Positions 15,001 to 18,000 of a stretch of 42,950 nt of DNA are shown here, one piece after another; position 1 is the first letter of the stretch, and every line of letters starts with the position of its first letter. The DNA comes from a virus (Duplodnaviria > Heunggongvirae > Uroviricota > Caudoviricetes). The stretch lies in IMG/VR virus record IMGVR_UViG_2778261513_000004; one strand, given 5' to 3'. A program made the position numbers.

Positions 15001-18000
15001 GGGCTGTTGCGTAATTCAGTCCCCTTGCTTCACACCATGCAACCGGAGATATACCGGAACGGGTGTATTCAGCAATATATTCCTGCTGCAACGCCCCCCA
15101 GTCCGGTCTGTTCATCAGTTAGTCCTGATTTTTATCCACCCTGAGTAACTCACGCAGAGCAAAGGCATCCCCTTTTCTGGCAAGCTTAAACAATGCGGCT
15201 CGTAGCTCGGCTTCACCTTTCGCTCTTCCCTTACGGATGGATGCGTAAAAATTTGTCATTGCTTCCCGATTTTCTTTCAGTCGGTTCAGATCAACATCCA
15301 GAACATCAGCGATTTGTTGTGCGGTCATCCGGCACGCAGCCAGAGACTCGACTTTCGAATACGGAATCATTTGTCACCCCCATTGGTATGCAGGGTGTCT
15401 TCTTCCTGTATTTTTCGTTAAGGATTTTTACTGCAGCGTTGTTCCAGGTGACCTGATGGTGAATGCGTTTATGGCTGGCCCCCATCAGTGAGATTTTTAC
15501 GCACGAGGGCGCATACATGACGGAGTAAAAACTTTTAACGTAGGTTCCGGAATCCAGATACAGCTCGGTCATTCCGCCGCTGTTTTTCTGCGTCTGTTTC
15601 TGTCCCAACTGGACAGCACCAATCGTCATAAACAATTCACCACGGCGACCGAGATTCGTGTAAGTATTCACATCCTCGTTAATGCGCCCCATGAATGAGA
15701 ACGGTCGCTCAACCGAACAGATAAAGCTGTTCATTGCCTTGCGTTTCACCCATGAAGCATGGCCGCCATTGTCACCAAGAAAATCCCCGCCCTGCGACAT
15801 AGCGATGGAAAGCGCAGGAATTGATTCGTAATACGCCAGCATTTCAGAAAGGATTGCGTCCAGTTTCCTTATCGGGAAATAGGCCTGGTCATAGTTGTGA
15901 TCCACCCGAAACTGGAACTCATGATAATCATCATCGAACTGAATGAAGTATTTACACCCGACCTGTTTTGCCAGGTCGAAGCAGGCATTACGTGCGTAAA
16001 AAATTGAGCGACGGTCACCGAAATTATCGGCTTCGTCAAAACGACTGGCGATATCGGCTTTAGAAAACACCAACACCTGTTTACCAAATTCAGCTGTGTA
16101 CTGATGCCGGGTTTTATCTTCATCATCAACGACGATAAAAATTTTACCGGTATAGCCAGCTCGACGTAATGTCCGGTAAGTCAGAACTTTGTCCGGTCGC
16201 CCGTGAGTCAGAATAAAGGCGCAAAAATCATCACGCATATTCCTCCTCCCCGCCGTGCATGATCTCCACCATGCGTTGCGTCATCCGGACAAATCCATTT
16301 TCAATGGCCTGCTGATAATCAATGATCACCAGCGCCGACTCCTCAAAAAGGTGCTGAATTTCAGCGGGGGCGTGAGCGTAATAGTCCGCAATTCTGCTGA
16401 AATCAAACACCGTGTGACGCTCTGCTGCACACAGGAGGAATTTTTCGATATCAGGATCAAGGGACGCCGAACGTATCCGGCTGACCAGTTCCTGAGTTTT
16501 CGTATCGTCGTACAGTTCGCCGATATCCGGTTTATCGCCTGACGGCTCATAAACAGGCGTATCAATTTTCGTCGTGTACGGCTCCTCCTCAGTTCCGGTG
16601 CCCGGCAAAACTTCCGTCAACAGTTCGTCAATTTCTGTTTGGCTGAATCCTGTCAGGGAGATATCAAAATCAGCATTGATTAGCTCTGACAGTTCCATCC
16701 GTAACAGATCTTCATCCCAGCCAGCGTTAAGCGGCAGACGATTATCTGCCAGGCGATACGCCTTTTTCTGATCCTCCTTCAGGCAAGACAAAACAATGAC
16801 CGGAACGGAATCCATTTTGAGCACTTCAGCCGCCATAACGCGACCGTGACCAGCAATAATTTCGCCCTTTTCGTCAATCAGCACTGGATTAGTCCAGCCA
16901 AATTGCTTAATGCTTTCTACCAGTTGAGCCACCTGCTCAGGGCTGTGGGTCCTGGCGTTGTGCGCATATGGAGACAGTTTTTGTAACGGGCGATAGACGA
17001 TCTTCAATTTCTCGCTCATACAGCCTCGCATTATGAATAAAAAAGCTCACCAGCAGCCAGTGCGCGGGGTGCGCAGCGGGGGCTGTTGATGAGCCAGGCA
17101 TTATCGCAGCCCCTCGCTGAAGGGCTGCTTTAATGCCTGTTACTCACGAATCAATCGAATCTTGTTACCATTTATTTCGATGCGTGAATATTTAGCATTG
17201 CCATTAACATATGCAACAATCACTTTCTCCCCTATAGGTTTCCACATAATTACCTCCAAAATCCCAACCTTCTGAAAAACTGGTTTAGAATTGACAATAA
17301 AAAACCCGCCGAAGCGGGTTTAACTAGACTTAATTATTTAATCAAGCTGGATAATATCGTTCAGCACCGGATTCATAATAGGCCCTTCAATGTTCTGTCC
17401 TTTAATACTAACAGGAATCGGCATTTCAATATGAATTGGCACATCCATACGTCCATTTACAGGATGAACAAATGATAAGCGCATAGCGCCGTTTTCTATC
17501 CCAACAAAATTACCAATTTGCATGCCATAAAGGCTAAACATCTTCCCTGCCGCAGGTCCAGTTCCACCATTCTCTAAATAATAAGCAATGCTTTTCATAT
17601 TTTCTCCAATTGTTGCGTACGCATGGAGAATTTATCACCGAGAACAAGCTAACTAATTGATAATGATCATTTATTTTGACGCAGCATCGAACACCATCAA
17701 TAAGATGACAGACCTGCGAAGCCGTATCGAAAAGCTGTCGAATCTTATCCAGGCTAACGCATCCCACCGATAAAAAAGGCACCAGTATCGCTACCAGTGC
17801 CCATTTCCCGGCATTCTGTGTGTCCAGTGCTTTCGCGTCATGTCACCACCAACGCACAGTCCAAATAATAATAGCAACCGCCACAAGGCGAATCGCAAAG
17901 GCTGCAGCCCTTGTTAGATAAAGGCTCGCAGGAGTTTCCACTTCTATACCTTTCATAATGGACAACCTCAAAAAGAATCTTTTATACTTTCCCTCGAGGA

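Follow-up and report, generated by a model that had tools for sequence, protein, structure and literature searches.

A predicted TAGT-family glycosyltransferase and its conserved partner protein ahead of the packaging genes of a Rac-like Escherichia coli prophage

Until now, DNA-acting glycosyltransferases of the TAGT family (TET-associated glycosyltransferases) have been viewed solely as the final step that follows the synthesis of hydroxymethyl-cytosine or hydroxymethyl-uracil. What, then, is the role of such an enzyme in a virus in which none of the genes for these bases is found? This question is raised by a stretch of 42,950 nucleotides from the IMG/VR virus record IMGVR_UViG_2778261513_000004 (Caudoviricetes), which is called the window in the following and is a Rac-like lambdoid prophage integrated in the chromosome. 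Directly ahead of its terminase genes, it carries two overlapping genes that encode a 266 amino acid long ParB-like protein, termed here the partner, and a 310 amino acid long protein of the TAGT family. Our preferred answer, for which we estimate a probability of about 50%, is that the two proteins carry out a partner-assisted, post-replicative glycosylation of phage DNA around packaging, with an acceptor that is already present in ordinary DNA.

Solitary homologues of T-even-type glycosyltransferases were reported in 288 of 753 phage genomes and left unexplained (PMC13216743). In a survey of 25,000 metagenomic contigs, about 65% had a glycosyltransferase of the GT-A type but no precursor enzymes, and these were likewise left unexplained or set aside (bioRxiv 10.1101/2023.12.21.572611). 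The data presented here reveal that one large clade of these orphan glycosyltransferases is not solitary, but travels with a specific, previously undescribed partner domain that is usually fused to a ParB module and heads the packaging genes. No description of this obligate pairing was found in the literature searched, which was a limited library and is not proof of absence. The orphan enzymes thereby become a defined two-protein system that is directly testable in E. coli. If DNA is the target, the system would represent a new kind of DNA modification and the second case of ParB-fold cofactors for DNA-modifying enzymes; if the partner protein is the target, it would represent a new viral protein-glycosylation system.

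Two overlapping genes and their products

A sequence-only reading of this DNA had proposed two ORFs (open reading frames) with overlapping stop and start codons. Both exist with the proposed boundaries and lie on the minus strand, which had been left unstated. The TGA stop codon of the partner gene occupies positions 16231-16233 and the ATG start codon of the transferase gene positions 16236-16238, and the overlap between the two ORFs comprises 8 nucleotides (ATGCGTGA). The strong Shine-Dalgarno sequence noticed in front of the second ORF is also present: GGAGGAGG at 16242-16249 of the minus strand is located 3 nucleotides 5' of the transferase ATG, within the 3' end of the partner gene. The terminase genes follow directly downstream, which agrees with the earlier placement of the pair just before the packaging genes. 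No promoter-like site was found between the hairpin at 17302-17321 and the start of the ParB-like gene. For this reason, the pair is most probably transcribed along with the packaging genes as part of the Q-dependent late transcript, and its expression presumably needs Q-mediated read-through of the hairpins that precede it.

The 310 amino acid long protein matches the TAGT family of Pfam (PF20691) over the entire profile (residues 8-222; E 5.8e-36; 124.8 bits with a cut-off of 27.5) as well as PHROG 842 (E 1e-101), and its close homologues are named 'GREB1-related protein' by PGAP. Clustering of this large family yields over 8000 clusters at an identity of 90% and leaves 1332 representatives at 50%. 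When the transferase sequence was searched against the PDB, nothing meaningful was returned, the best match being a DNA polymerase with E 0.72. An AlphaFold2 model, based on 30 diverse homologues, reached a pLDDT of 85.7 and a pTM of 0.83, and its top Foldseek matches in the PDB are all GT-A enzymes, namely TarP (E 3e-6), followed by SunS, K4CP and SpsA, with TM values of 0.35-0.46. ThuS and the nucleoside-binding glycosyltransferase AvpGT are also among the matches, and glycogenin is found at a lower rank. Among the viral models of BFVD, the matches are TAGT-domain proteins with TM values of up to 0.78/0.86, and one match is annotated as a beta-glucosyl-HMC-alpha-glucosyltransferase. The GT-A fold, which had been assigned to this protein only tentatively, is supported by the Pfam match, the confident model and the structural neighbours.

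Two acidic motifs, FIVVDDEDK and FDDDYHEF, had been singled out as signs of such a fold. They correspond to residues 34-42 and 101-108 of the transferase; FDDDY contains the DxD motif, which is conserved in the 30 diverse homologues, and VVDDED contains the invariant residue D41. Further invariant residues in this set are R14, D103, G151-D152, R166-K167, N187, D189 and H260-H261, while D102 and D104 are conserved in at least 90% of the sequences and E188-D189 is invariant or nearly so. In the model, a predicted beta strand (residues 97-102) terminates at the DDD triplet, which is the usual position of DxD in GT-A enzymes. These motifs correspond to the R...DDD...ED series of phage DNA GT-A enzymes and JGT (bioRxiv 10.1101/2023.12.21.572611). 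Sequence, predicted fold and motifs together assign the protein to the GT-A glycosyltransferases as a member of the TAGT family. It is mildly basic, with a pI of 8.7-8.9, and has no match among the PADLOC or anti-defence families. Homologues are typically 280-295 amino acids long and end near residue 286; the additional C-terminal tail of the window protein is predicted to be disordered and is encoded where the gene overlaps a downstream 83 amino acid long ORF. This overlap comprises 65 nucleotides (15306-15370), or 23 nucleotides with the start codon chosen by PGAP.

The partner protein has two parts of different conservation. For close homologues, PGAP gives the name 'ynaK: ParB/Srx family N-terminal domain-containing protein'. 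The N-terminal part matches Pfam ParB_N (PF02195) just over threshold (E 2.3e-6; 28.0 bits with a cut-off of 26.3) and is aligned by phmmer to the ParB/Spo0J structures 4umk and 6sdk. It is also the part for which the AlphaFold2 model is confident, and Foldseek retrieved Noc, ParB, PadC and KorB at E of about 1e-5. Residues of note in this domain are N25, R27, S40, G45, G61-H62-G63-R64, D96 and N97. In an alignment to B. subtilis Spo0J, with residue roles taken from PMC13229309, the positions for phosphate and cytosine binding are kept (R27, S40, G45, G61, R64 and N97); two residues that have been implicated in CTP hydrolysis are exchanged, with N25 in place of Q and H62 in place of E, so that GERR reads GHGR. 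Residues 5-145 match PHROG 498, 'DNA methyltransferase' (E 9e-51), and residues 11-147 match MTase_II of PADLOC (E 2.5e-37); residues 5-147 thus show clear homology to the N-terminal module found in fusions of ParB with DNA methyltransferases. The nucleotide-binding domain and the linker are separated by only about 40 helical residues, which is too short for a full helix-turn-helix (HTH) DNA-binding domain. The sequence-only reading had described the protein as a ParB-like nuclease-domain protein. The ParB/Srx fold is retained from this description; 'nuclease' is an old family name, and no indication of nuclease activity was found.

Conservation of the C-terminal half of the partner exceeds that of the ParB domain, among 60 partner proteins as well as in a cross-domain alignment. 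Behind a disordered linker, it contains a linear motif around Y152 and Y161, in which Y152, P159 and Y161 are invariant in the 60 partners and equally so in the cross-domain alignment, which includes Haloarcula virus HHTV-2 and Lactobacillus phage phi jlb1. Residues 141-162 have a pLDDT below 50. The acidic helical domain that follows did not match any Pfam family when searched in isolation, and a profile of it gave only chance-level matches in the PDB (E of at least 0.016). The AlphaFold2 model of the partner has an overall pLDDT of 66 and is of low quality beyond the ParB domain, with values of 36-83 for the C-terminal domain. The net charge is about -16 for residues 141-266 and about -22 for the whole protein, which has a pI of 4.6. 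In several lineages (L105, L111, L115, L136 and Vibrio phages; L numbers denote loci), the ORF upstream of the transferase consists of the C-terminal domain alone, with 131-139 amino acids and no ParB domain. Because it stands alone in these lineages, the new C-terminal domain is the universal companion of this TAGT clade, and the ParB module is a frequent N-terminal addition. This was missed in the sequence-only reading: what is truly conserved beside the transferase is the C-terminal domain, not the ParB domain.

Conservation of the module across viruses

A first scan of viral contigs yielded only near-identical E. coli prophages. With one genome per species, 79 loci were obtained, 77 of which contain a TAGT ORF; they derive from Proteobacteria, Bacteroidota, Firmicutes, Planctomycetota, Verrucomicrobiota, Acidobacteriota, Saccharibacteria and other phyla. 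In 72 of the 77 loci, the TAGT ORF is immediately preceded on its strand by an ORF with the partner domain, and in 62 of these 72 the end of that ORF overlaps the predicted TAGT start by 4-11 nucleotides (8 nucleotides, as in the window, in 34 loci and 11 nucleotides in 23). The exceptions are contig ends, loci with a second TAGT between both genes (L129, L144, L151) and an N-terminal kinase fusion (L148). The pair is present in phi jlb1 and other phages of Lactobacillus (L. delbrueckii), in Nocardia phage NTR1, a Porphyromonas phage, phage c5, Vibrio phages of 190-195 kb and the archaeal Haloarcula virus HHTV-2, in which the identity amounts to 41% for the TAGT and 40% for the partner. The partnered clade spans viruses of Proteobacteria, Firmicutes, Bacteroidota, Actinobacteria and one archaeon, and identities remain at 40-60% between phyla and even between domains. 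Both genes thus behave as an obligate module that has been widely transferred, and the conserved gene order and overlap imply strong purifying selection.

In most loci with sufficient flanks, replication and recombination genes (SSB, RusA, VRR-NUC) are followed by the partner gene, the TAGT gene, a TerS-like gene, TerL and the portal gene. In phage c5, the pair represents ORF1 and ORF2 and starts 79 nucleotides past the cos site. Terminases are conserved downstream neighbours across the loci, and in the window the region 12739-15115 matches Terminase_2, Terminase_6N and Terminase_6C of Pfam. Neighbour-family clustering placed homologues of the 83 amino acid long ORF directly after the TAGT gene in 26 loci; this family is about 150 amino acids long and has no Pfam match. 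Where the partner has no ParB domain, the setting can differ: the pair is found between DNA polymerase A and a DnaN-like beta-clamp in two loci (L111 5306-10153; L136 7606-10153) and is followed by a helicase gene in Vibrio phages (L164 3459-7663, 195 kb). The polymerase and clamp setting recalls the coupling of the T4 alpha-GT to the replisome clamp.

Additional enzymes accompany the module in some lineages. A radical-SAM gene encoding about 320 amino acids, with a SPASM match below threshold (E 0.019), is located directly 3' of the TAGT gene in 13 Clostridia-type prophage loci, approximately 850 to 1400 nucleotides after the TAGT start (L129-L132, L141, L142, L144, L147-L149, L151, L154 and L162). 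A cysteine within G[ED]CP right after the Tyr motif of the partner is present in 8 of 12 radical-SAM loci, compared to 4 of 53 others; this association is not strict and is confounded by relatedness. It may hint at a modified partner peptide, or simply at shared ancestry. The TAGT domain is fused to an N-terminal P-loop (GxxxxGKS) kinase-like domain in P0154, P0189, P0191 and L148 (6498-7901), to a class-I SAM methyltransferase in P0128, P0132 and P0160 and to Sulfotransfer_2 in P0165, and tandem duplicated TAGTs occur in P0148 and P0149. These arrangements suggest the synthesis of a glycan that is subsequently decorated, by phosphorylation, methylation, sulfation or extension in some lineages. 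ParB-TAGT fusion proteins were not found among the homologues, in which the long proteins are kinase, methyltransferase, sulfotransferase or second-TAGT fusions.

Related systems and the acceptor of the transferase

Among the closest known systems is the beta-glucosyl-HMC-alpha-glucosyltransferase of T2 and T6, which belongs to PF20691 (PMC13216743) and, like the window transferase, is phage-encoded and of GT-A fold. The T-even enzyme extends the glucose on hydroxymethylcytosine (hmC) that is made before replication, and it acts alongside an alpha- or beta-glycosyltransferase. In contrast, neither dCMP hydroxymethylase nor the alpha- and beta-glycosyltransferases are annotated in the near-identical prophage, and a T-even-type pathway was rejected because hmC genes are absent there. 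A tblastn search with the transferase retrieved no T2 or T6 record, and the homologues of T4-like Aeromonas phages are only 23-24% identical. The TAGT homologue of one of these, Aeromonas phage 65, shares the core motifs GR, ARN, DDD/DDN, NED, GG and HH with the window transferase. No partner domain was found in this TAGT or in the two downstream ORFs that were tested, and the partnered clade is distinct from it.

Trypanosomatid JGT and the 5mYOX-associated glycosyltransferases of phages (Burke et al. 2021; bioRxiv 10.1101/2023.12.21.572611) share the GT-A fold and the R...DDD...ED series with the window enzyme. TarP is the top structural neighbour in the PDB in our analysis and also in the latter study. 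These enzymes act on DNA after replication, and their neighbourhoods often include ParB-like genes and terminases; JGT-like phage glycosyltransferases were found to glycosylate 5hmC (bioRxiv 10.1101/2023.12.21.572611). They differ from the window module in using 5hmU or 5hmC, which is made by a JBP/TET-type dioxygenase encoded next to them, in some cases together with a C5-methyltransferase, whereas the window module has no dioxygenase. The TET association, from which the TAGT family takes its name, is thus missing from the context of this transferase.

For the partner, a comparison is offered by phage ParB-like proteins that lack a DNA-binding domain and activate their cognate thymine dioxygenases (5mYOX) specifically on double-stranded DNA (PMC13229309). 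ParB176, which pairs with 5mYOX176, resembles the window partner in having a nucleotide-binding and a C-terminal domain, in the conserved nucleoside triphosphate (NTP)-binding residues, in the missing DNA-binding domain and in its position beside a modifying enzyme. The client is a dioxygenase in that system and a glycosyltransferase in the window, and the C-terminal domain of the window module can partner alone. By analogy, the module would work most like the ParB-dependent 5mYOX pairs, with another client enzyme. The fusions of ParB with N6/N4 DNA methyltransferases (PMC12704722) are homologous over the first approximately 145 residues of the partner and are, like the module, enriched in prophages. 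They carry the methyltransferase domain themselves, while the partner is joined to a novel domain and its enzyme is separate but translationally coupled. Since this 2025 survey of ParB-fold fusions relied on Pfam domains, the unannotated C-terminal domain was not visible to it.

Glycosylation of DNA is favoured because the known members of the TAGT family act on DNA, because the ParB-type module is common to DNA methyltransferases and because the neighbours of the pair are polymerase, clamp, helicase and terminase genes. The activation of thymine dioxygenases on double-stranded DNA by ParB-like proteins (PMC13229309) and the charge complementarity between the basic transferase and the acidic partner also argue for it. 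In the proposed mechanism, both genes would form one functional unit that is made late in infection alongside the packaging machinery, and the 310 amino acid long protein would be an active, metal-dependent GT-A glycosyltransferase. The acidic C-terminal domain of the partner and the Tyr motif would bind and then activate or position the transferase, and the transferase itself would supply the contact to DNA. Where it is present, the ParB/Srx domain could add an NTP-controlled switch or clamp. The sugars on the DNA might shield the phage genome from host nucleases. More tentatively, and with somewhat less than an even chance in our view, the pair could be a self-sufficient machine that, during packaging, adds sugars to DNA without any prior modification, be it on the backbone, on the DNA ends or on one of the canonical bases, which would represent a new class of DNA modification. 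Nearly as novel, the pair could build a glycosylated, DNA-mimicking acidic protein on the Tyr/Thr motif of the partner.

Several points weigh against glycosylation of phage DNA by the pair. We know of no precedent for the glycosylation of unmodified DNA by a GT-A enzyme, and in the literature searched, modified DNA was not reported for any phage with this pair. The annotation of the near-identical prophage and the early ORFs of the window contain neither a TET/JBP-type dioxygenase nor a ThyS-like hydroxymethylase or C5-methyltransferase. Flanks of about 8 kb around the 79 loci were grouped into neighbour families, and no acceptor-making enzyme recurs in the 40 largest of these, the main ones of which were named by Pfam. 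Besides the partner and opposite-strand shadow ORFs, none of these 40 families occurs in more than 26 loci. The 12 families present in at least 10 loci comprise shadow ORFs, the ORF of about 150 amino acids after the TAGT gene, two TerL families, DUF5681, SSB, radical SAM, C5-methyltransferase and a family of about 470 amino acids that follows TerL and was not scanned with Pfam; C5-methyltransferases are present in only 11 loci. The complete genome of phage c5 (31.8 kb, 50 ORFs) has no annotated acceptor-making enzyme either, and its largest hypothetical ORF encodes about 210 amino acids. Thus, the hydroxymethyl-pyrimidine or glucosyl-hmC acceptor of the characterized DNA-acting TAGTs is not provided for, and with no enzyme for hmC or hydroxymethyl-uracil (hmU) in the prophage, the acceptor would have to pre-exist in ordinary DNA. 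The earlier proposal of a DNA-hypermodification module is plausible in that it fits the family and its genomic contexts; the enzymes that would make a hydroxymethyl-pyrimidine acceptor were not found.

Further points of this kind concern the partner. Its strong acidity makes DNA binding of its own unlikely, as does the lack of any HTH family match in its sequence. Some lineages dispense with the ParB domain altogether, and in other partners its Box II has degenerated, as in L116 with AGNGT. In Ceylon31 (L001), which is the closest genome with 99.1% identity, an intact transferase gene stands next to a ParB-like gene with the annotation of an incomplete pseudogene (L001 21663-21920); the module is decaying in some lysogens. 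Finally, the animal TAGT-domain protein GREB1 was reported to act on a protein, as the O-GlcNAc transferase of ER-alpha (PMC7968844). GREB1 is a large eukaryotic protein of the same domain family and is relevant solely as a precedent for a protein acceptor.

The main rival to a DNA acceptor is accordingly a protein, most economically the Tyr/Thr motif of the partner itself (Y152-T153...P159-x-Y161). The product would be a glycosylated acidic protein, perhaps a DNA mimic, a packaging factor or an anti-defence factor, that is tailored in some lineages by extra TAGTs, fusion domains or radical-SAM enzymes. The partner domain and its motif surpass the ParB domain in conservation and are also found in its absence, the motif is located in or next to a predicted disordered segment, the partner is highly charged and a pathway to a DNA acceptor is not present, all of which would fit. 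Glycogenin uses a tyrosine as acceptor and the SunS-type glycocin transferases use peptides, and glycogenin as well as the peptide S-glycosyltransferases SunS and ThuS are among the structural matches; these matches are generic for GT-A enzymes, however, with TM values of about 0.4. The radical-SAM neighbours and the associated cysteine fit weakly, as the association is incomplete and confounded by relatedness. The characterized TAGTs of phages and trypanosomes act on DNA, the shared ParB module and the DNA-handling neighbours also point to DNA, and the conserved motif is equally explicable as a docking peptide. On balance, we consider a protein acceptor unlikely. Somewhat less probable is a target that is neither DNA nor the partner, such as an immune nucleotide or second messenger, a terminase or capsid protein or a host factor, in a late counter-defence or assembly function. 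ParB/Srx folds can bind CTP, ATP or GTP, and SerK and sulfiredoxin are examples of their participation in the chemistry of small molecules (PMC12704722); the structural matches include AvpGT, and the kinase fusions would be compatible. Specific evidence for such a target is lacking, PADLOC and anti-defence families were not matched by the transferase, and the conserved position near DNA-handling genes would remain unexplained.

The classic role of a TAGT, the transfer of a sugar onto a hydroxymethyl-pyrimidine or a glucosylated base, would require an acceptor from outside, provided by genes elsewhere, by host chemistry or by a superinfecting T-even-like phage. Family membership and the catalytic core shared with the Aeromonas phage homologue speak for this role, and one paper suggests that prophage glycosyltransferases might hypermodify invading viral DNA. 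To our knowledge, however, E. coli DNA contains neither hmC nor hmU, and enzymes for them were found neither in the prophage nor in the complete genome of phage c5. A gene in the late operon is probably silent in lysogens, the Aeromonas phage 65 TAGT has no detected partner domain and the same arrangement occurs in hosts as unlike as Haloarcula, Lactobacillus and Nocardia; we therefore regard an external acceptor as improbable. A non-functional passenger of a cryptic prophage would account for the pseudogene in Ceylon31 and for K-12, which keeps only a fragment of the partner gene. We give this explanation a very low probability, because both ORFs of the window are intact with all catalytic and partner motifs and because the identity, gene order and overlap maintained across phyla and domains imply purifying selection. 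The lowest probability of all is assigned to a partition or segregation module or a ParB-type nuclease. A partition-like module had been offered in the sequence-only reading, and the ParB_N match and names such as 'chromosome (plasmid) partitioning protein' are what speaks for it. The partner scores 35.6 bits with the ParB model TIGR00180, compared to a cut-off of 58.45, it has no HTH match and PGAP annotates no ParA in the near-identical prophage. Moreover, the locus is chromosomal in 1562 of its 1577 places in E. coli, coupling of the partner to a glycosyltransferase is obligate, and some lineages have no ParB domain. The protein has the ParB/Srx fold, but it is not a partition ParB. A serotype-converting or surface glycan transferase was also rejected, in view of the late operon, the obligate pairing with a ParB-fold protein and the DNA-handling neighbours.

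The surrounding prophage and its distribution in E. coli

The features of the window are compiled in Table 1. The closest E. coli genomes are 98.3-99.1% identical to the window across the 2-kb locus, and in the surrounding 42 kb PGAP annotates early genes of the recE, recT, kilR, sieB and ydaV type and lambda-like tail genes. In 5' to 3' direction, the minus strand of the window encodes a Q-like antiterminator, a pertussis-like AB5 toxin, holins, a GH108 endolysin, the A and B chains of LT-II, the hairpin, the pair and the terminases.

Table 1. Positions of the gene pair, of the domains and motifs of its products and of other features of the window (aa, amino acids; SD, Shine-Dalgarno sequence)
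Feature	Position	Strand	Basis
Partner gene, ParB-like, 266 aa	16231-17031	minus	ORF; PHROG 620, E 4e-87
ParB/Srx nucleotide-binding domain of the partner (predicted), aa ~8-100	16732-17010	minus	phmmer, conservation, AlphaFold2, Foldseek
Short helical segment of the partner (WD..L..EL...GF), aa ~101-147	16591-16731	minus	PHROG 498, PADLOC; model helices 107-138
Linear motif of the partner, Y152-T153-x-K-I-x-x-P159-x-Y161-E162-P-x-G-x-x-P	16528-16578	minus	Conservation; in or beside predicted disordered segment
Acidic helical C-terminal domain of the partner, aa ~170-255, FLxxAAxRHxxFxYxxIAEYYAHAxxExQxLMExSALVIID	16267-16524	minus	Conservation
Translational-coupling junction	16231-16249	minus	SD, ATG and TGA read directly from the sequence
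TAGT-family GT-A glycosyltransferase gene (predicted), 310 aa	15306-16238	minus	ORF; PF20691; PHROG 842
DxD motif D102-D103-D104, putative metal/nucleotide-sugar-binding site	15927-15935	minus	GATGATGAT; alignment conservation
C-terminal tail of the transferase, aa 287-310	15306-15380	minus	Missing from the other 29 sequences of alignment A1; pLDDT <50
Small ORF, 83 aa (69 aa from internal Met per PGAP)	15119-15370	minus	Partial match to small-terminase PHROG 309, E 2.5e-22
Terminase small subunit TerS	14021-15115	minus	Pfam Terminase families
Terminase large subunit TerL	12739-14049	minus	Pfam Terminase families
Terminator-like hairpin upstream of the pair	17302-17321	minus (coding strand)	Between LT-II genes and ParB-like gene
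Second terminator-like hairpin	17777-17802	minus (coding strand)	Between LT-II genes and ParB-like gene
LT-II enterotoxin B chain	18533-18934	minus	LT-IIB, E 1e-41
LT-II enterotoxin A chain	18891-19670	minus	Enterotoxin_a, E 5e-117
Pertussis S2/S3-like binding subunit	21238-21687	minus	Weak match, below Pfam cut-off
Pertussis-S1/scabin-like ADP-ribosyltransferase	21770-22495	minus	E 5.6e-15
Q-like antiterminator	22884-23426	minus	First in the minus-strand order given above
AriB/DUF4435 protein	25918-26820	minus	E 4e-9
AriA-type AAA_21/AAA_15 ATPase	26827-28029	minus	PADLOC AriA, E 2.6e-41

The position of the LT-II genes in the late operon, between the endolysin gene and the pair, identifies the element as an LT-II toxin-converting prophage, and the two hairpins between the toxin genes and the ParB-like gene are typical of a moron cassette. 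The module is therefore of concern for prophages that carry the LT-II enterotoxin. The pertussis-like genes (21238-22495) represent a second AB5-type toxin pair, located just after the Q-like antiterminator. In the early region, no family match was obtained for a 326 amino acid long ORF (28800-29780). It lies beside an AriA-type and an AriB-type gene (25918-28029), which together constitute a PARIS-like anti-phage defence pair.

Of 5426 complete E. coli genomes, 1561 (29%) contain a match to the locus, and in 867 (16%) the match covers at least 80% of its length. Phages of the vB_EcoS-...R series carry it with 93.6% identity. In the Rac prophage of K-12 MG1655 (L163 3378-3641), the gene ynaK (b1365) corresponds to the first approximately 92 codons of the ParB-like gene at 88% identity, and the remainder of the module is deleted. 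The adjacent K-12 gene ydaY was considered as a remnant of the TAGT gene and rejected, as it is unrelated to the transferase. The partner gene of the window thus explains the origin of ynaK in K-12.

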